From a virus (Duplodnaviria; Heunggongvirae; Uroviricota; Caudoviricetes): DNA of 64,000 nt. The notes below the pieces were generated by a model, which saw only the letters and a list, made by a program, of their open reading frames with translations, was not told the origin of the DNA and ran no database searches. The stretch lies in IMG/VR virus record IMGVR_UViG_2744054962_000001; one strand, given 5' to 3'. The first letter of the stretch is position 1; each line of letters begins with the position of its first letter. Both the position numbers and the translations under genes were made by a program. Below, in pieces: positions 47,798 through 58,664 of this stretch.

Positions 47798-48319
47798 TTA
47801 TTCTTCGAACAATTTTTCGATAGATTTTGTAGGATAGAACAAAGAACGCTCGTTGTTACCAACCAGCTGGATAAAGCCTAAACTTTTATAAAACGCCTTG
47901 GCTTTGTCATTTAACGCCTCAACGAAAAGTCCATGAATGCCTACAGCAAGAGATGCATTGTACACAACGCGCATTGCATGTGTTACAAGCATTGAGCCAA
48001 ATCCTTGACCTTGAAGGGACTTGTCCAAAGCCAGCCTACCCAAAGTAACACTTGGAACATTCCGATAAGGAACCTTCTTTTGTTTGCTTCTTGAAGGTAA
48101 GGACTCCTTTTCAAAACAACTACCTGACAAAGTGTAATATCCTAACACTTTTGGCCTTTCTTCTTGAGTGCAAAGCACATAAGCACGAAGAATTTTTCCC
48201 TCATGCTGCCTTTTTAAGTGGTTGGCTAAAAAGGCGTTTAGTGACTCTTCGCCGCAATCAAAACCGTTTAGATCATAATCTTTCTCTCCAGAGAAAATCT
48301 CTATCGTTGTATTGCTCAC
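47798..48319 (-). CDS. GNAT-family acetyltransferase toxin (TacT/AtaT-like)
   Basis: GNAT motif LQGQGFGSML; GTG start 7 nt after antitoxin stop. Confidence 0.75.
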   Translation of the reverse strand: MSNTTIEIFSGEKDYDLNGFDCGEESLNAFLANHLKRQHEGKILRAYVLCTQEERPKVLGYYTLSGSCFEKESLPSRSKQKKVPYRNVPSVTLGRLALDKSLQGQGFGSMLVTHAMRVVYNASLAVGIHGLFVEALNDKAKAFYKSLGFIQLVGNNERSLFYPTKSIEKLFEE

Positions 48320-48326
48320 GAGTAAA

Positions 48327-48596
48327 CTACTCCATGCTTTTCAGACGATCAGCAGCTCGTTTCAGCTTGTCGTTCGGTGCCGGAGGATTGCTTATAGCGT
48401 CCATAACCAGATTCCAGGATTCTTCATTCAGAACTAGTCTACGGTGTTGCTCTATAACTTTCACGGCACGTTCAGATGCACTGCTAACCATAAACTGAGT
48501 AATGCTCTGGTTAGACATTGCGGCAGCTTCCTCGATGATGCTTTTATCGTCATCGGTTAATCTCAAATCGATGCGCTGCTTTTTTAGTGCTGACAT
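48327..48596 (-). CDS. RHH antitoxin (DUF1778/TacA-like)
   Basis: 89 aa from ATG 48596 (AGGAGG RBS); immediately upstream of GNAT toxin. Confidence 0.7.
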   Translation of the reverse strand: MSALKKQRIDLRLTDDDKSIIEEAAAMSNQSITQFMVSSASERAVKVIEQHRRLVLNEESWNLVMDAISNPPAPNDKLKRAADRLKSME

Positions 48597-48864
48597 GTAT
48601 TCCTCCTGATGGCCGTGATGTAGGAAGGCCATCAATCTCCTCTGTTCAAACTGAGTTTTCGACTCAAAAATTACTTTAAAAGGCTATAGCCCATTACGTG
48701 TGCATTATCAAATTGTGTACGGCATATCACCGTACTTGTAATATAGAGGTCATTGTTACTTTTTTCAACAGACAAATACAAGCTATGATTGCCAATTGTT
48801 AATCACAACCTACCATTTAACCTTTACACCGCAGCCGTAGGCATTTAGGCTATATCACATATAA

Positions 48865-49978: not shown

Positions 49979-49993
49979 AGTGGAGTGATAATT

Positions 49994-50746
49994 ATGCATT
50001 CGTTAGTATTTGCATTTAAAAACATACTCAAGAATGTTATAAACATACTAGGGATGTTAAATATTTTTTTGTCTGTGAGGGTGAGGAGAAAAGATATAAA
50101 AGATAAATTAAAGGAACTTAACAAAGAAAAAGAACAATTAAAAAGCGAAGAAATTATTATTGATTTATACAAGAAAAAACTCGCATCTAGCAAGGGGAAA
50201 GCTAATGATAAAATCAAAGGAAAAATAATTCACTATATTATTGCTAGAGAGTTGGGGAATGATCCTGATAATGAAGATTTGCGACATAATCTTTTTACAA
50301 AGATAAAAGAATCAGAAGAACAGGTTGAAGTTCTGGTTCATCAAAGAGAAGTAAGTGAGCAGGCGAACAAAAAAGAAACGGTTGTCAATTTGTTTTTATT
50401 GTATGAAAAAAATAAATTGTTTAAAGCTAAGGGGTTGGCTGTGTTTCTTATAGTTATAAACTTAATTATAGTTGCGACTCTCGATCTTCCAGCTTGGTCA
50501 TTGATTATAAGTTTTTTTATTCTCTCTTTGATTATGTTGAAAGATCAGATACTTACTATTCGTGTCTCTAAAGGATATTTTGGCACAAGTGCGTATGAAG
50601 CGGTTCAATTGCTTAAATTCATCAGAGAAAATTCAGACAAATTTGACTCAGATGATAATGACGGTAGCCCACGACGGATATTGAATCCGAAGGGAACAAC
50701 AAAAAAATCAGACAACCTATTCGATAAAGGGTGGCAAAATGTTTGA
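49994..50746 (+). CDS. Hypothetical membrane protein (250 aa), AT-rich
   Basis: GGAG RBS; K/E-rich N-terminal region then two hydrophobic segments. Confidence 0.5.
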   Translation: MHSLVFAFKNILKNVINILGMLNIFLSVRVRRKDIKDKLKELNKEKEQLKSEEIIIDLYKKKLASSKGKANDKIKGKIIHYIIARELGNDPDNEDLRHNLFTKIKESEEQVEVLVHQREVSEQANKKETVVNLFLLYEKNKLFKAKGLAVFLIVINLIIVATLDLPAWSLIISFFILSLIMLKDQILTIRVSKGYFGTSAYEAVQLLKFIRENSDKFDSDDNDGSPRRILNPKGTTKKSDNLFDKGWQNV

Positions 50747-51161
50747 CCTTGACGCCATCACTAAGTTCTTAAATCAGTGTTTTGATCTACTTTTGCTCAA
50801 GCAGCCTTTAAGAACTGTTTTCGGAATACTGATTGGTTTCATTATTTTTGTTTTTGTTTACACGTTTAGGTTTGCGATAGCTCAAGATTTTTATGAAATA
50901 GATGGTGTGCATTACGCTGCATGTTTCGTCATCGGTGTTTTAGTTGTTCACACAAGAACATTTTTTGACGTTATCAAGGGCACCGCAGTTGATGAAGAAA
51001 TAGATAGTATGATCAGAGTTATTACGAAGCAGCCACACCTATCTAACCATCAAAAAAACATAATGATTGCTGAAATACTTCAAAAAGAAATTGCAGCCAT
51101 AAGTCAAAAGAGATTGGATAAAGTTGCACAAGAAATAACGGAGAAAAAGACAACTGATTAA
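50739..51161 (+). CDS. Hypothetical membrane protein (140 aa), AT-rich
   Basis: Start overlaps upstream stop; two predicted TM helices. Confidence 0.5.
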   Translation: MFDLDAITKFLNQCFDLLLLKQPLRTVFGILIGFIIFVFVYTFRFAIAQDFYEIDGVHYAACFVIGVLVVHTRTFFDVIKGTAVDEEIDSMIRVITKQPHLSNHQKNIMIAEILQKEIAAISQKRLDKVAQEITEKKTTD

Positions 51162-52125: not shown

Positions 52126-53466
52126 ATGACCGAACTTTGCCATACAGGACGCGGGCTGTCCGAAGAGTTTGATGAAGATTTCCAGAACAGACTGACGGCA
52201 TATTTTTGTCGTGATCACGAGTTTCTTACTCGTGCGGGAGATCTGGTTGTGCCTAGCCAATTTGCCAATGCGGCCAATGCCATATTGGTTAATATGGTTT
52301 CGGGCTATTACCGTATGTACAAGAGCGCGCCCTCTTCATCTGCAATTCTGGATATGCTTAAGCGTGCGAAACGCGATAAGACTATCCGTGAGGAACTATT
52401 CGCCGATGTTGTTGCTGCGTTTAAGCGCATCCTTGCAGAAAAATTGTCCGATACCTCGTACATGGTTGACCAGGTATCAACCTTCGCAAAAAGCGTAGCG
52501 TTTGATGATGCTCTGATTAAGGCTGCTGAACTGAAAGAGAAAGGCGACTTTCAGGGGGCGATGGCAATCATGGCCAAGGTTCAGCAGATTGGATCGAACG
52601 AAGCGACCGGAATCTATGACTACTACACCTCCGCAAGTGAGCGATTGAAAGCGCGTGAATATGAGGCTTCAGAGGAGTATGTACCAAACAGTATTACAAC
52701 TGGACTCCCTCTTCTCGATAGGTTGCTGTACCAAAAAGGCTGGGCAAAGCGCGAAATGGTGCTCTTCATGGGGTTCGCTAAATCCGGTAAATCGACCGCA
52801 ATGGGTGAGTTTTCCATAAACGCAACGCTTGCTGGCTACAATGTTCTGTATCTCTCGCTGGAGGTTCACACCACCATTTTATCCGACCGTTTTGATGCAA
52901 GATTGTCGGAGACGGAAATGTCCAAGCTGGTGGAACGGCGCGATGAGGTTCATCGTAAGTTGGCAGAGTTGGGAGCCACGAAGGGGATTGGTAGTTTGTG
53001 GGTTGTTGAGCGTCCGTCAGGAAGTATGTCACCGGCAGACCTGGATCGTATGCTTAACAGCATGAAAGCCAATGGCATGGTGCCTGACATGGTTGTTGTC
53101 GACTACGCAGATTTGATGCGTGCCAGTTATGACCTTCGTGATGATCGCGCCAACATTCGTAGTATCTACACCGATTTACGTGCTCTTTATGACAAGCATA
53201 ACGTTGCTGGTATCACGGCGTCGCAAACAAACCGTGAAGGTGGCGCGTCAGAAGTTGCCACAATGATGCACGCTGCCGACAACATCGAAAAAGTACGTAT
53301 TGCTGACCTGGTAATAACGATCAACAAAACCGAAGAAGAAGAAGCGAAAGGAGAGGCTCGTCTCTACTTTGCTGGTTCGCGTAACCAGCAGGGAGGGATC
53401 AGCATTCGCGTTAAACAAAACCTCGAACAAATGCGCTTCATTGAGCGAATCTTAGACGTTACCTAA
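52126..53466 (+). CDS. DnaB-family replicative helicase
   Basis: Walker A GFAKSGKST, Walker B VVVDYADL, SQTNR motif; 446 aa. Confidence 0.8.
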   Translation: MTELCHTGRGLSEEFDEDFQNRLTAYFCRDHEFLTRAGDLVVPSQFANAANAILVNMVSGYYRMYKSAPSSSAILDMLKRAKRDKTIREELFADVVAAFKRILAEKLSDTSYMVDQVSTFAKSVAFDDALIKAAELKEKGDFQGAMAIMAKVQQIGSNEATGIYDYYTSASERLKAREYEASEEYVPNSITTGLPLLDRLLYQKGWAKREMVLFMGFAKSGKSTAMGEFSINATLAGYNVLYLSLEVHTTILSDRFDARLSETEMSKLVERRDEVHRKLAELGATKGIGSLWVVERPSGSMSPADLDRMLNSMKANGMVPDMVVVDYADLMRASYDLRDDRANIRSIYTDLRALYDKHNVAGITASQTNREGGASEVATMMHAADNIEKVRIADLVITINKTEEEEAKGEARLYFAGSRNQQGGISIRVKQNLEQMRFIERILDVT

Positions 53467-53473
53467 AAAATAA

Positions 53474-53494
53474 GCGTGGAGAACACCTCCACGC
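53474..53494 (+). terminator. Hairpin after helicase gene
   Basis: GCGTGGAG-AACAC-CTCCACGC; lies inside the N-terminal extension of track ORF 53476. Confidence 0.5.
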
Positions 53495-53547
53495 TTGATT
53501 CATTGGTGAAACAACTTTTCTTTTGCCAAACCACAAAAGAAAAACAC

Positions 53548-54729
53548 ATGAGCCTTTATGTTATATCAACATTTAGGTTGGTCACAATATTGCCTGTTAA
53601 AAGTGGAATTATCGTGAGCGAGCTGAAAGAGCTAATTACCGAATTAGATTTTGAACAATGGTTGGATACTGAAGGTATCGTTTATCGACGTGGAGGCGTG
53701 AGTACTCGCGGTCGTGAAGTGAATATCAAGGAGTGTCCGGTATGCGGCAGCTCCAACTGGAAGGTATATTTCAATCTGACCAGTGGCGTCGGTAAATGCT
53801 TCGCTGGTGATCATCCCGAAGAGATTCAGTTCAATAAGCTGGTCTTCCTCAAGCACTACAGCGGTAAATCACGACGACAGTTCGAGGAATATGTGCAGAA
53901 CGCTCTTCTTTCCCAGGGGTGGGCACCAAAGAAAGAAGAGATAGTGCTTGCAAGCACAGTCGAGTTAGAGGGACCAGTTGCACTCCCTCGTCATTACGAT
54001 CTTCCTATAGATGGCCATCTTCCAGACTATCTGGTTGAACGAAATATATCGCCTGAAATGGCAAAGTATTTTGACCTACGATACTGCGTCGAAGGCAAGC
54101 ACGCTTATGTAGATCCGTATACAGATCAGGTTAAAGGACAGATTTTCGATATGCGAATACTGATACCGGTTTACGATCTGGATGGGGTAATGAAGACATT
54201 TCAAGGACGAGACATTACCGGTACAGCAGAACGCCGCTACCTCTTCCCTATGCAGCTGCCGGCGTCGGGTAAGTTTCTCTACAACGGCCACAACGCAGTC
54301 GGGAAACAAACAGTCGTTGTGTGTGAAGGGGCATTTGACGTAATGGGCGTGAAGCGAGCCATCTTCGACGAAAAGACGCTGAGGGATTATGTAGAGCCAA
54401 TTGGCACGTTCGGGATGCACTTGTCCGGAAATATGAATGAGGACGCTGAAGATCAGTTGGGCGCGTTCCTGACGCTCAAGGCGCGTGGATTACGCAACGT
54501 CATCATGATGTGGGATAGCGAGAAGCAAGCGATCCGCAACACCATGTCGGCGGCCAAACGCCTCACCAGCATCGGACTAAATGTCAAAGTGGCCTGTCTG
54601 GGCGAAGAAGGTCTCGACCCCGGCGACGCGACGCCAGAGCAGATCCTCAAAGCCTATTATCGTGCCAAGCCTTACTCCAAACAGCTGGAGTTAAAATGCA
54701 AAGTGCTCGGTATCAAGTCACTCGTGTAG
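53548..54729 (+). CDS. DNA primase (zinc-ribbon plus TOPRIM)
   Basis: Zn ribbon CPVCGSSNWKVYFNLTSGVGKCF; TOPRIM-like VCEGAFD and MWDSE; start uncertain (53476 GTG or 53548 ATG). Confidence 0.75.
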   Translation: MSLYVISTFRLVTILPVKSGIIVSELKELITELDFEQWLDTEGIVYRRGGVSTRGREVNIKECPVCGSSNWKVYFNLTSGVGKCFAGDHPEEIQFNKLVFLKHYSGKSRRQFEEYVQNALLSQGWAPKKEEIVLASTVELEGPVALPRHYDLPIDGHLPDYLVERNISPEMAKYFDLRYCVEGKHAYVDPYTDQVKGQIFDMRILIPVYDLDGVMKTFQGRDITGTAERRYLFPMQLPASGKFLYNGHNAVGKQTVVVCEGAFDVMGVKRAIFDEKTLRDYVEPIGTFGMHLSGNMNEDAEDQLGAFLTLKARGLRNVIMMWDSEKQAIRNTMSAAKRLTSIGLNVKVACLGEEGLDPGDATPEQILKAYYRAKPYSKQLELKCKVLGIKSLV

Positions 54730-54730
54730 T

Positions 54731-55828
54731 TTAAGTTGTGGGAGACAGACGGTTCAGGACAAACGCTGCGATATTATTTAGTGCTATATTTAGCAAACTT
54801 GCATCATATGTTTGGTCGTTATCCTTAGGTTTAAAATTGCTGATACTGACTGTCTCACTGTGCTCATTTTCATAGAAACGTTTACTGCTTGAATCTAGGC
54901 GTTTGAGGACGTAAATTTGCCCAAATTCAATCCACTCACCTTCACCATTGAGTCCGCTCCCTGTTTTGACTGAGATGAAGTACTTTGCCAGCTTGGTTGT
55001 AATGCAGTCTTCATTTTTTTCTATGCAAACCTTAATGCCGGCGGCTTTCAAACTACGATAAATGCTGTTTGGATATGCCCCACTATAGATTTCGCTGCTT
55101 TCAATGATAATGACGTCGTATTCTTCCTTTGGCTCAATAGATAAAGCTTCAGGCTCCAAATCATCCTTGTGAAAAATAAATCCTAAAAGACGCTCAAGTT
55201 CATCTGTTAATTTGAACATGGGGTTCGCTTGGATCTCGCCAGCCCTGTCTTCGTAGACGAGCCCCGAGGTTATGAGCTTATTTAGCGATCTCAGAGCCAT
55301 TCCACTTTTTTGTGATGTGAGGCTAACTTGGGCTAATACAGTTGATTTATAGCCTTTTATTGGCGAGCTTGTTGTGATGTAAAGTTTGCGCGCATATTCA
55401 ATATCAAAGCAGGTTAACCCACTCAGTATGTGGATAAAAAATAGTTTTTCATCGTCGTTAAGGCTGCTGCGGGCTAGGCTTACCGTCAAGCGAATGTAGT
55501 ATTCTGTTTTCTTGTCTTCATCATCAAGCACGAGCTTTTTGACTAACGCCGAAAAGTGTTCTCTTGAGATATCGACCTCATCGTCGCAAATTTCACCAAT
55601 GCCCATAATGTAACGGTTGAATCGATCACGACAAGTCGTCGCATTTATCTCTGAGAACAACGTGAACATTTTTTCCGCTGCCTCAATATGAGGTCCAACA
55701 AGCGGTATAGATTTGGCAAACGCCAAACCAGTTTCTTTCAATACCTTCCTGTGTTGCATCACGTTTTTGGACAACGTTGTCATAGACCTAAGCCTTGTGT
55801 GTTTAACGTATGAGTTAAGTGAAATCAT
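54731..55828 (-). CDS. Hypothetical protein (365 aa), AT-rich, convergent with primase
   Basis: Opposite orientation to flanking replication genes; stop 2 nt from primase stop; alternative start ATG 55783. Confidence 0.55.
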   Translation of the reverse strand: MISLNSYVKHTRLRSMTTLSKNVMQHRKVLKETGLAFAKSIPLVGPHIEAAEKMFTLFSEINATTCRDRFNRYIMGIGEICDDEVDISREHFSALVKKLVLDDEDKKTEYYIRLTVSLARSSLNDDEKLFFIHILSGLTCFDIEYARKLYITTSSPIKGYKSTVLAQVSLTSQKSGMALRSLNKLITSGLVYEDRAGEIQANPMFKLTDELERLLGFIFHKDDLEPEALSIEPKEEYDVIIIESSEIYSGAYPNSIYRSLKAAGIKVCIEKNEDCITTKLAKYFISVKTGSGLNGEGEWIEFGQIYVLKRLDSSSKRFYENEHSETVSISNFKPKDNDQTYDASLLNIALNNIAAFVLNRLSPTT

Positions 55829-55900
55829 ATAGAAGTGACCTGACAGCTACAACTGGACAAGATTAAGAGCATTTTTTATAAACGAAAATAAACGCCTACA

Positions 55901-55925
55901 TTGATAAGTAGATACATACTTATAT
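55901..55925 (+). promoter_or_regulatory. ATAAGTA-family motif (ATAAGTA..TACTTAT inverted repeat)
   Basis: TTGATAAGTAGATACATACTTATAT upstream of 55967. Confidence 0.45.
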
Positions 55926-55966
55926 TTCTGTAAGAATATGCTCGACGAAGGAATTGAGGAACCTTT

Positions 55967-56761
55967 ATGAAAGCAGATATTCAGAAGTCCGTTACCGAAA
56001 TCATCGACAAATCAGGCGTAGAAATTGATACAGAAGAGCGCCAGAAGATTATCGATGAGGCGATCCAGACTGCGCTGGAGCACATCGCCACGTCTGTGAG
56101 CACCGCACCTCTTTCGGAAGGCTCGAAATACATGCGGGTCTGGGTTCGTTTTGGGGAGTCCCCGGAGCTGCCTGGTGTTAAACAGAAACGCGCGGCACTC
56201 GTGGCGTTCACTCGCAAAATGAAGGACGCAACGGTCGAAGTACGCGCCGGTGCATGGTACGACGGTCGCGTTGTCTACACCAATCAGGCAGTGTGCGATG
56301 AAGGTGAACGGTTTGAGGAAATTGTCGACGCGACTCTTCGCGCGATCAAAGGCAGGGCTGGCGTAGAGGATGATCCTTCTATCGCGGCGTTCCTGAGCAT
56401 TGTCGAACTGCCTGAAGTTACCGAACGCGTTACAGATCTGACAACCCCACCTGGTTTGCTGGAGTTGGTGGTCAGTGGCGATACCAAAAAAGCCGTTGAG
56501 CGCATTCGTGAGGTGGAATACGGCATCATCTGCGATATGTGCCGCAGCGACTTAGACCTGGTGCGCATCATTGTCGACGCGGGTCAGACATGTGACGGTG
56601 TGCTCGCCAGTTTTGCAGGGCAGGTGGCACGCCTGGCCAACGAGCTGCCGATGATTAAACAGGAGGCAAAATCCTACGCCGTCCACCATGCCAACGATTT
56701 ACTGGAACCATACCGGTTCGAAGCCGCTCAGGACAAAATGACTGGCTGGGCTACCTGGTAA
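55967..56761 (+). CDS. Hypothetical protein (264 aa)
   Basis: GAGGA RBS; strong terminator follows. Confidence 0.55.
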   Translation: MKADIQKSVTEIIDKSGVEIDTEERQKIIDEAIQTALEHIATSVSTAPLSEGSKYMRVWVRFGESPELPGVKQKRAALVAFTRKMKDATVEVRAGAWYDGRVVYTNQAVCDEGERFEEIVDATLRAIKGRAGVEDDPSIAAFLSIVELPEVTERVTDLTTPPGLLELVVSGDTKKAVERIREVEYGIICDMCRSDLDLVRIIVDAGQTCDGVLASFAGQVARLANELPMIKQEAKSYAVHHANDLLEPYRFEAAQDKMTGWATW

Positions 56762-56779
56762 GCCTTGATAAACCATTTA

Positions 56780-56800
56780 GCCCCCTGGTGGGGCTTTTTT
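56780..56800 (+). terminator. Rho-independent terminator
   Basis: GCCCCC-TGGT-GGGGC followed by TTTTTT. Confidence 0.7.
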
Positions 56801-56810
56801 AAACTGCGCT

Positions 56811-56834
56811 CAATAAGTAAGTACACGACTACGG
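56811..56834 (+). promoter_or_regulatory. ATAAGTA-family motif
   Basis: CAATAAGTAAGTACACGACTACGG after terminator, before 56843. Confidence 0.45.
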
Positions 56835-56842
56835 TTAGAAGC

Positions 56843-57307
56843 ATGTCCACAAAAACAGATTTGTCGAAAATCCCGTCTATCTCCGGAAACAACGGTTATT
56901 CGCTGCGCTGTCAGGAAGTGAAGATCAACGGCCATGAGGCCCATTGCAGCTATACAGTCTGCCAGCACACCATCCTCGCCTACAAAGAGAAGCGTCTCCC
57001 AGCGACATCGTTCCAGTCCTGCGCTGCGGCCATTGCTGCTGGAAAATGCCAGGCGCTGAAGATGATGGTCGAAGAGATCCGCAAAGGCGAACAGCTCTAC
57101 TTCATCGATATGGCTACGCTTATCAAAGAAGTGGAAGAGCAAAACGACCACGCCAGAACGCTTACCCGGAAGCGCAACACCATGACGATTCAACGCACGA
57201 AGAAAACAGAACCAGCCAAACCCGAAACCACGTCCACCGATTCACTGGCGCCTGTCACTGACGTGTACGCGGCACTCATTGAAGAAGCAACCAAAGAAAA
57301 CACATGA
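56843..57307 (+). CDS. Hypothetical protein (154 aa) with Cys/His cluster
   Basis: HEAHCSYTVCQH segment; start after terminator and promoter motif (track start 56765). Confidence 0.45.
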   Translation: MSTKTDLSKIPSISGNNGYSLRCQEVKINGHEAHCSYTVCQHTILAYKEKRLPATSFQSCAAAIAAGKCQALKMMVEEIRKGEQLYFIDMATLIKEVEEQNDHARTLTRKRNTMTIQRTKKTEPAKPETTSTDSLAPVTDVYAALIEEATKENT

Positions 57308-57341: not shown

Positions 57342-58664
57342 ATGGAAAAACTGATCGCCCTAAAGCACAAGCTGGATGCCATAAAAACGATGGGAACCAA
57401 CGCCAAAAAAGAGGCGCTGGCCAACCTTGATAAATTTGAGCAGAGCATGGTCTCGCTAATGCTCAACCCATTCATTCGATTCGGTGTGAAGAAGTACAAA
57501 GTGGTCGAGCCACTCGATACTTCCGTACCCATCGACCAGAAGGTAGTCGAGCTGCTGGAGAAGCTGGCGGCGCGCGAACTGACCGGGAACGCGGCCATTA
57601 CTGCTGTTGAGTCTATCGTGGCGTCAATGTGCGCCGATGGGCAGGACGTGTTCCGTCGTTTCCTCTTAAAAGACCCAAAAGCGGGTGTTGGGATTAGCCT
57701 ATGCAACAAGGTTTTTGAAAATCCCATTCCGAAATTCGAGGTGCAGCTGGCGTCACCGTATAAAGAAAAAGGCGACAAATACCCCTTCAAGCCAAACCCT
57801 AAAGCAAAATGGCCTATGATTGGCAGCCTTAAGCTCGATGGTTTGCGAGTAATTTGCGAGGTTATTGTTGACGAAGAAGAGGTTAACTTCCTTTCTCGTA
57901 CTGGTAATCCAATCACGTCTCTCGATCACCTAAAGCCAGCCATGCTCGAATTAGGCAAACTTTCAGGCCACAAACACATCTTCTTCGATGGTGAAGGAAC
58001 TGCCGGTTCATTTAACCAGTCCGTATCTGCATTGCGCAAAAAGAACGTGCAGGCAATTGGCGCTATTTATCATGTTTTCGACTTCTTCCTACCGGAATGG
58101 CGGGCACAGGCTAAATCCAAAGAGTATGCAAAGACAGGTATGAAGCTGAAAGAGCGCCTGGCTATTCTCGTGGCGTTGTTCAAAAACGATCGCAGTGAAG
58201 GCTACGCACAAGACATTCACCTGCATCCGTTCTATATCATCCATAGCCACGAAGACTTCATCGAACGCTTCATGAAACGCCTGGACGATAACGAAGAAGG
58301 GGAGATGGGCAAAGATCCGAACTCTGTTTACGAGTTTAAACGTACCCGCAGCTGGTGGAAGTTAAAAGACGAAGATTCAGAAGATGGTGAAATTATCGAT
58401 TTTGAGCCGGGCGATCCGGACTCTGGTTTTGCCAACACGCTTGGAAAAATTGTTATTCGTCTTGAAAACGGCGTCATCGTTCGTGCGAGCGGTATTAAGC
58501 ATAAATATCTGGACGAGATCTGGAACAACAAAGAGAAGTACCGTGGTCGTATTGTTGAGGTTCATTGTCACGAGAAAACACTGGATGGCAGCTTACGCCA
58601 CCCCCGACTGAAATGGCCGCGTTGCTTACGCGATACAGAAGATCGAATCGGAGATAAAGAATGA
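57342..58664 (+). CDS. ATP-dependent DNA ligase
   Basis: Adenylation motif I KLDGLR; motif III-like FFDGEG; GGAGG RBS. Confidence 0.8.
   Translation: MEKLIALKHKLDAIKTMGTNAKKEALANLDKFEQSMVSLMLNPFIRFGVKKYKVVEPLDTSVPIDQKVVELLEKLAARELTGNAAITAVESIVASMCADGQDVFRRFLLKDPKAGVGISLCNKVFENPIPKFEVQLASPYKEKGDKYPFKPNPKAKWPMIGSLKLDGLRVICEVIVDEEEVNFLSRTGNPITSLDHLKPAMLELGKLSGHKHIFFDGEGTAGSFNQSVSALRKKNVQAIGAIYHVFDFFLPEWRAQAKSKEYAKTGMKLKERLAILVALFKNDRSEGYAQDIHLHPFYIIHSHEDFIERFMKRLDDNEEGEMGKDPNSVYEFKRTRSWWKLKDEDSEDGEIIDFEPGDPDSGFANTLGKIVIRLENGVIVRASGIKHKYLDEIWNNKEKYRGRIVEVHCHEKTLDGSLRHPRLKWPRCLRDTEDRIGDKE

Follow-up and report, generated by a model that had tools for sequence, protein, structure and literature searches.

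Why should a single gene of a phage-plasmid be oriented against the replication block in which it lies? This question is raised by a minus-strand gene, called X here together with its protein, at 54731-55783 in a 64-kb stretch of viral DNA (IMG/VR record IMGVR_UViG_2744054962_000001, Caudoviricetes), the whole of which is referred to as the window. Around X, the window shares 87.5% nucleotide identity with Salmonella phage SSU5, and 53476-56761, the only stretch queried in this way, showed 100% identity to the Escherichia coli plasmid NZ_CP116198.1 (113 kb) in a megablast search of PLSDB. Because of this kinship to phage SSU5 and that to the Salmonella Typhi plasmid pHCM2, the window is classified, on sequence grounds, as an SSU5/pHCM2-type phage-plasmid. 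Phage-plasmids of this type, which usually go by the name of cryptic, are frequent in clinical Salmonella Typhi, Shigella, E. coli and Klebsiella. The genes of the region are arranged in the order ParA-like gene, two small genes, an AT-rich pair, a gene for a protein of 249 amino acids (aa), DnaB-like helicase and DnaG-like primase, followed by X in reverse orientation, a 264-aa gene, a 180-aa gene and an ATP-dependent ligase. As set out below, X is accessory cargo in a single-gene slot between the primase and the 264-aa gene, and its product may be an exclusion or abortive-infection (Abi) protein related to Abi-alpha.

An accessory gene in a slot between the primase and the 264-aa gene

When the region comprising the primase, X and the 264-aa gene was used as a megablast query against PLSDB, 752 related records were found, 58 of which cover at least 80% of it. 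By tblastn, 58 PLSDB records contain an X homologue with at least 60% identity. X is thus missing in about 92% of the related phage-plasmids (about 58 carriers among about 750). In Cyrano, PhiR41_1 and Enterobacter hormaechei plasmids the slot is empty, and in the first two of these the homologue of the 264-aa gene starts 75 nucleotides (nt) past the primase. Slot alignments, which took in Cyrano, PhiR41_1, SSU5 and elements from Citrobacter freundii and Klebsiella pneumoniae, revealed an exact indel that extends from the primase stop to about 55899, up to the shared backbone block ATAAGTAGATACATACTTAT-TTTCTGTAAGAATA. Other elements have different genes at this place, always on the reverse strand: a Sel1-repeat protein of 417 aa in one C.freundii plasmid, a 157-aa open reading frame (ORF) together with IS3 in another, and a 388-aa protein that is common in phage-plasmids of K.pneumoniae. 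The latter was considered as a diverged form of X; the two were compared and are unrelated. The alleles of X (57-100% identity) are all placed one base past the primase stop, and those of K.oxytoca and Enterobacter ludwigii, with 57-77% identity, occupy the identical slot position. The 264-aa gene is kept also in elements without X.

The proposal of the initial annotation that X is an inserted cargo gene is thus borne out: more than 90% of the related phage-plasmids lack it, the slot is empty or refilled, the indel is exact, and the gene was recently exchanged (see below). Comparison of presence and absence in relatives, which had been suggested as a check, identifies X as accessory and not as a core replication or recombination gene. 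A core replication protein or replication initiator is rejected by the same comparison, and no replication-protein domain was found in X. The slot resembles the hotspots of P2 and P4 and the accessory loci of P1, where unrelated single genes or nothing alternate between fixed borders. X itself is similar to the cargo of moron and defence hotspots in having its own putative promoter, a lower G+C content and the opposite orientation. A literature search found no description of the slot between the primase and the 264-aa gene of SSU5-type elements, and no slot cargo could be assigned to a recognised defence system when X and its relatives were compared with PADLOC and the alternative cargos with Pfam. 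For the discovery of further cargo like the Sel1-repeat protein and the Klebsiella 388-aa protein, the slot is a well-defined place.

The nucleotide identities to pHCM2 differ sharply along the region. X is 99.5% identical and the 264-aa and 180-aa genes are 98% identical, whereas helicase, primase and ligase show 80%, 87% and 84% identity, respectively. A near-identical block between such diverged flanks means that about 2.6 kb including X were recently exchanged between diverged backbones. Judged by these identities, 54731-57307 is a tract over which phage-plasmids of E. coli and S. Typhi have recently recombined.

X had initially been described as an AT-rich 365-aa gene which is convergent with the primase and the only minus-strand gene between helicase and ligase. 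The orientation was described correctly. No other minus-strand ORF lies between helicase and ligase outside the plus-strand genes, and the stop codon of the primase (TAG, 54727-54729) is separated by one spacer base (54730) from that of X (54731-54733). The length has to be revised. A minus-strand ORF of 365 codons does exist and is open throughout (54731-55828), but the coding sequence comprises 350 aa from Met16. The first residues are MTTLSK in all 12 close homologue clusters, the ATG of the longer ORF (55828) falls within a conserved -10 hexamer, TATGAT, and the frame ahead of Met16 is closed by stop codons in SSU5-type alleles. Met16 is taken as the real start because of the homologue starts and the alignment of promoter and ribosome-binding site (RBS). 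The AT-richness holds in comparison with the neighbours, the G+C content of X being 41.5%, that of the primase 48.4% and that of the 264-aa gene 54.7%; the window as a whole has 45.9%. However, the dip is modest (11th percentile of same-size windows, about 1.2 standard deviations under the mean), and the strongly AT-rich part of the window lies elsewhere, at 49985-51161 (31-35% G+C).

The gene has been in the databases since pHCM2 was sequenced, as hypothetical only. The X protein is 100% identical to WP_000209842.1 of pHCM2, is a homologue of SSU5_041 and matches PHROG 22938 with an E value of 6e-218. All three represent the same gene or family and are annotated as hypothetical or of unknown function; no paper mentioning any of them came up when the literature was searched by accession numbers and locus tags.

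X and the 264-aa gene diverge across an intergenic region of 183 nt. On the X side, a candidate sigma-70-type promoter consists of the -35 element TTGTAG (55852-55847), a spacer of 17 nt and the -10 element TATGAT (55829-55824). The -10 block TATATGATTTCA is invariant across four diverged alleles (window, SSU5, K.oxytoca, E.ludwigii), and the same four upstream regions have a -35-like TTGT(A/C)G and the 17-nt spacer in common. A consensus promoter scanner gave no call at this site because the -35 element fits the consensus at three of six positions. The four aligned alleles also share the block around the likely RBS, AGGCTTA(G/C)G. The conservation of these promoter blocks and of the RBS in diverged alleles suggests that the X cassette brings its own promoter. 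No terminator-like site was found between X and the primase.

The right border of the slot is formed by a backbone block upstream of the 264-aa gene, in which the palindrome ATAAGTA-N6-TACTTAT (55904-55923) is followed by TTTCTGTAAGAATA. This palindrome is the only one in the divergent intergenic region. Each of the six aligned elements has this block, even the two whose slot is empty, and the palindrome thus occurs also where X is missing. Since it is independent of the filling of the slot, it lies outside the cargo and is probably not the operator of X. More probably the block is a backbone promoter, or an operator for a conserved factor.

Domains of the X protein and similarity to Abi-alpha

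In a phmmer search of 1.84 billion representative proteins, 63 relatives of X were found, mostly 340-390 aa in length; 51 family representatives were used for the family scans. AlphaFold modelled X with a predicted local distance difference test score (pLDDT) of 77 over the full length and of 84 for residues 1-215. From alignments and models the product is predicted to be a cytoplasmic protein with three domains. Its best-conserved part is the N-terminal helical module (residues 1-121), which overlaps the region aligned with Abi_alpha (see below). The module starts with a poorly modelled hairpin of the form helix-(I/V)PxxG-helix (residues 1-45), and its helices bear the near-invariant residues D87, D88, E89, K92 and Y96 (DDExxKxxxY motif). 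No fold match to this module was found in the PDB. The hairpin was considered as a membrane anchor, a claim which was dropped, the usual hydrophobicity threshold being passed in 4 of the 51 members.

The second domain (residues 122-213) is a MarR/SlyA-type winged helix-turn-helix, followed by a conserved LxPxxIG linker. Searched against the PDB, the family profile matched 4mnu with an E value of 2.3e-6 and the SlyA structure 1lj9 with 0.012. Hence the initial statement that no motif was recognised in X does not hold any more, given this winged helix and the remote relationship to Abi_alpha. MarR/SlyA regulators such as 4mnu and 1lj9 have about 140-170 aa and N- and C-terminal dimer helices. 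X shares only the winged helix with them; unlike in these regulators, an unrelated helical module precedes the winged helix and an alpha/beta domain follows it, and neither a conserved target operon nor an operator could be assigned. The C-terminal domain (residues 216-350) is modelled as a three-layer alpha/beta fold which, in terms of the SCOP classification, is anticodon-binding-domain-like. It contains no conserved catalytic residues, the sole widely retained residue being D223 in the first strand (YDVIII).

The domains differ in their conservation. Among the alleles from phage-plasmids, the N-terminal module is 74-99% identical, with one outlier (P0005) at 58%, whereas the C-terminal domain, P0005 aside, shows 30-64% amino-acid identity. 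One allele (P0006) is a recombinant in which the N-terminus is 99% and the C-terminus 35% identical. In the family, homology of the C-terminal domain is detectable in 27 of 51 members, and its size is 110-160 aa in all but two. A conserved N-terminus combined with a variable, recombined C-terminus resembles the pattern left by an arms race.

In individual Pfam scans, 11 of the 51 family representatives matched Abi_alpha (PF14337) below threshold. These matches are collinear, residues 55-205 (approximately) of the proteins being aligned with positions 3-164 of the 196 profile positions. The best match, that of P0063, reached 26.4 bits (E value 8e-6) compared to a gathering score of 29, and the family consensus reached 17.1 bits. 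Any other Pfam or NCBIfam family was matched by two members at most. P0063 and one further member, P0077, bear a precomputed PF14337 tag in the protein database. P0063 matches X with an E value of 3e-7 in the phmmer search, and SSU5_041 reciprocally with 2e-6; when P0063 was searched against 50,697 phage genomes by tblastn, SSU5 was the sole return. Because the matches are collinear and no other family recurs, a remote homology of the X family to Abi-alpha is likely, the matches being below what formal PF14337 membership would require. Should the alignment be correct, a helical module and a winged helix would make up the Abi_alpha domain itself.

Abi-alpha (EF2833) is a 272-aa protein of prophage 6 of Enterococcus faecalis V583 by which picovirus infection is aborted through premature lysis (PMC6356687). 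Its phenotype comprises normal adsorption, fewer centres of infection and death or premature lysis of the infected cells (PMC6356687). Among the prophage proteins of Staphylococcus aureus phiNM1 lysogens, a DUF4393 protein is the most abundant (bioRxiv 10.1101/2025.10.23.684294). Like EF2833, X is a single gene on a temperate element and lacks a recognisable enzymatic motif. However, the PF14337 type is a single domain of about 200-270 aa (272 aa in Abi-alpha), to which the 350-aa X protein adds a C-terminal alpha/beta domain of about 135 aa. The hosts also differ, being Enterobacteriaceae for X and Firmicutes for Abi-alpha.

Genomic contexts and possible functions of X

Homologues of X are solo genes without a conserved neighbour and are found in prophages, integrative and conjugative elements (ICEs), plasmids and chromosomes. 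In two related (pro)phages the homologue is located between injection or tail genes and the genes for tail fibre, holin and endolysin, i. e. in a moron position. A PAPI-1/ICEclc-like ICE has a reverse homologue amid its backbone genes, near a DUF4145 gene, and DUF4145 also adjoins the homologue of a Rep3 plasmid. In another ICE the homologue is found between traG and ardC, and in an integrase-bearing element it adjoins ardC and ccdA. Further neighbours are AIPR and NACHT genes (K.pneumoniae IncFIA/IncR plasmids), the anti-phage gene ppl (a K.oxytoca plasmid), a RelE/ParE pair (an E. coli IncFIA plasmid), a Ser/Thr kinase, an XhoI restriction-modification system and DUF3800 (metagenomic contigs), as well as a cluster of DNA methylase, GHKL kinase and response regulator in a Lelliottia chromosome. 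This distribution is as expected for conflict genes on mobile elements.

In the two (pro)phages, a reverse 83-aa ORF lies after the homologue and before the tail-fibre gene (9058-9309 in L019/L020, 9136-9387 in L028); it could encode a small partner or a regulator. In the Lelliottia locus (L006, 11284-17090), a DNA methylase, a 1034-aa HATPase_c_3/HEF_HK protein and a Response_reg_2 protein are encoded beside the homologue. This cluster has the appearance of a candidate system for defence or epigenetic sensing.

The initial annotation had considered an abortive-infection or exclusion function for X. We think the chances are about even that X is an Abi-alpha-like single-gene exclusion or abortive-infection protein. 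As moron-type cargo, it would be transcribed from a promoter of its own, separately from the replication operon and presumably also in the plasmid state. It would then exclude competing phages, and possibly other incoming mobile elements, for the resident phage-plasmid. The N-terminal helical module and the MarR-type winged helix would together constitute the Abi_alpha (DUF4393) domain. The variable winged helix and the C-terminal part might recognise nucleic acid or protein of the invader, and the conserved N-terminal module would then give an Abi-alpha-type outcome, either premature lysis or abortive infection. This part of the initial proposal is favoured indirectly, by the collinear and recurrent, albeit sub-threshold, similarity of the wider family to Abi_alpha, by the occurrence of the homologues as solo genes on mobile elements and by their frequent defence neighbours; it is not favoured by the defence libraries, in which X has no match. 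More tentatively, and with somewhat less than even confidence, we consider the X family an unrecognised, widespread and modular family of single-gene immunity proteins, in which an Abi-alpha-type N-terminal module is joined to exchangeable winged-helix/C-terminal specificity domains.

A number of findings weigh against an Abi-alpha-like function. X alone has no match in Pfam, NCBIfam, PADLOC or the sequences of the PDB. It did not match PF14337 at an E value of 0.1 or below, and all family members stay below the gathering score of 29 bits. With PADLOC (PADLOC-DB 2.0) there were 0 matches for X and scattered weak single ones among the 51 relatives, and PHROGs gives no link from the X family to any annotated Abi family. 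A screen with DefenseFinder 1.3.0 reported no defence system in pHCM2-like elements, which bear the identical protein (bioRxiv 10.1101/2025.09.12.675607). Neither a catalytic motif nor a clear transmembrane segment was found in X. Since Abi-alpha is without a known mechanism, to say that X works like Abi-alpha names a phenotype and not a biochemistry. The clear similarity to the MarR/SlyA-type winged helix fits a plain regulator equally well. The evidence from neighbourhoods comprises about 15 contexts and is statistically uncontrolled. In four unrelated plasmids a KfrA_N gene is located 0-2 genes upstream of the homologue and has the same orientation (with a 4-nt overlap of the two genes in L013), and in two elements the antirestriction gene ardC adjoins the homologue, in one case near a relaxase gene. 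In one of the four plasmids, that of Erwinia (L023), the X homologue seems to be split into two ORFs.

Alternatively, X could be a MarR-like regulator of the mobile element which controls adjacent genes of the phage-plasmid or genes of the host, and would thus be active in lysogenic conversion or regulation instead of defence, with a winged helix that binds an operator and a C-terminal domain that binds a ligand or partner. Apart from the winged helix, this would agree with the layout of the locus: X is divergent from the 264-aa, 180-aa and ligase genes over a palindrome-bearing region, as is typical for MarR regulators, and relative to pHCM2 it was exchanged with the 264-aa and 180-aa genes as one block. 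Yet both the palindrome and the promoter block in front of the 264-aa gene persist in elements without X and are hence independent of it, and the solo homologues have no conserved neighbour. Moreover, the MarR dimerisation scaffold is absent, the winged helix being set in a 350-aa protein with an acidic, DDExxK-bearing N-terminal module, and a C-terminal domain that diverges fast and recombines between alleles would be unusual for a housekeeping regulator. We therefore regard a regulatory role as unlikely.

We rate it as still less likely, and indeed improbable, that X is an accessory factor of plasmid maintenance or partition which works with KfrA-type or segrosome proteins and promotes the persistence of the phage-plasmid in its plasmid form. 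The KfrA_N genes upstream of the homologues in four unrelated plasmids would be explained in this way, as would the position of X in a replication/partition region, with a ParA-like gene about 5 kb away. However, about 92% of the related phage-plasmids are stably kept without X, homologues are also found where partition is of no relevance, namely in integrated prophages, in ICEs and at a chromosomal site, and no kfrA adjoins X in the window. X as KfrC was rejected, no match to PF00156 or another Kfr-related Pfam family being found in X and the 51 relatives. KfrC has an N-terminal domain of the phosphoribosyltransferase type (PMC8124265).

That X is an anti-defence or establishment protein which shields the incoming element from host immunity is very improbable, for although ardC adjoins two homologues in integrative/conjugative elements and a variable C-terminus would fit a counter-defence arms race, X, with a sigma-70-like promoter of its own, points away from the early and replication genes and holds no leading or early-entry position, the chromosomal and plasmid homologues lie amid defence rather than anti-defence genes, and the sole family-level similarity is to an Abi protein.

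If X is indeed an exclusion protein of the Abi-alpha type, pHCM2 would thereby gain its first candidate immunity function, and phage therapy and typing would have to consider X as a factor of phage susceptibility. The Abi-alpha family would then be extended to Gram-negative elements in a three-domain form. A MarR-like winged helix would be present inside the Abi_alpha domain, and nucleic-acid recognition could be the trigger in a class of Abi proteins that has no mechanism as yet. The natural domain-swapped alleles offer a tractable route to what proteins of the Abi-alpha type sense and do.

Other features of the window and of related loci

The positions of X, its domains and the features around it are compiled in Table 1, together with those of the alternative slot contents and of the KfrA_N loci.

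Table 1. Positions of features in the window and, where a locus number (L) is given, in related loci
Feature	Position	Strand	Basis or remark
X coding sequence, 350 aa + stop	54731-55783	-	start Met16, ATG 55783-55781
N-terminal helical module of X, aa 1-121	55421-55783	-	alignments, AlphaFold models
MarR/SlyA-type winged helix-turn-helix of X, aa 122-213, then LxPxxIG linker	55145-55420	-	
Variable C-terminal alpha/beta domain of X, aa 216-350	54734-55138	-	
Likely RBS of X, AAGG	55793-55796	-	9 nt before the Met16 ATG
Candidate sigma-70-type promoter of X	55824-55852	-	sequence and four-allele alignment
Cargo cassette (X and promoter region)	54730-55899	.	alignments with empty and refilled slots
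Backbone block, right slot border	55904-55939	+	six-element alignment
DnaB-like helicase	52126-53466		
DnaG-type primase	53476-54729	+	left slot border; relatives annotate DNA primase
264-aa backbone gene, PHROG 4248 (unknown function)	55967-56761	+	right flank; divergent from X
ATP-dependent ligase	57342-58664		
AT-rich two-gene cassette, 253 aa + 140 aa	49985-51161		PHROGs 22270 and 17322, unknown function
417-aa Sel1-repeat protein in slot, C.freundii plasmid	L024 2719-3972	reverse	
157-aa ORF next to IS3 in slot, another C.freundii plasmid	L025 5211-5684	reverse	
388-aa protein in slot, common in K.pneumoniae phage-plasmids	L026 5262-6428	reverse	
KfrA_N gene with X homologue	L013 6297-7978; L021 4778-7032; L023 5100-6786; L012 3315-6992		

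The Pfam matches of the primase are slightly under the gathering scores (DNAG_N 25.4 versus 26 bits, Toprim_2 21.8 versus 22.1 bits). Its ORF comprises 417 aa from a GTG codon. The relatives are annotated with 372-394 aa, and in SSU5 and Cyrano the primase starts about 140 nt past the stop codon of the helicase. Probably the true start lies inside the 417-aa ORF.

The AT-rich two-gene cassette at 49985-51161 is located between the ParA-like and 119-aa genes on one side and the 249-aa gene on the other. The G+C content of its 253-aa gene is 31% and that of its 140-aa gene 35%. In SSU5, Cyrano, pHCM2 and a K.pneumoniae element the same slot contains DUF2971 proteins, and in PhiR41_1 a LEM-3-like GIY-YIG protein in reverse orientation. 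PADLOC gave weak matches only for the cassette (PDC-M02B, LeoBC, JetC). By these comparisons 49985-51161 is a second cargo hotspot of the window.

Two adjacent ORFs of 173 and 102 aa on the minus strand at 47798-48635 match, by size and position alone, the genes annotated for a KacT-type acetyltransferase toxin and its antitoxin in Cyrano. On the other side of X, the region of the 264-aa gene (55895-56761) is found with 95.4% identity in Yersinia pestis plasmids of 101-137 kb, which are probably of the pMT1 type. This similarity indicates that backbone is shared between these phage-plasmids and a virulence plasmid of Y.pestis.

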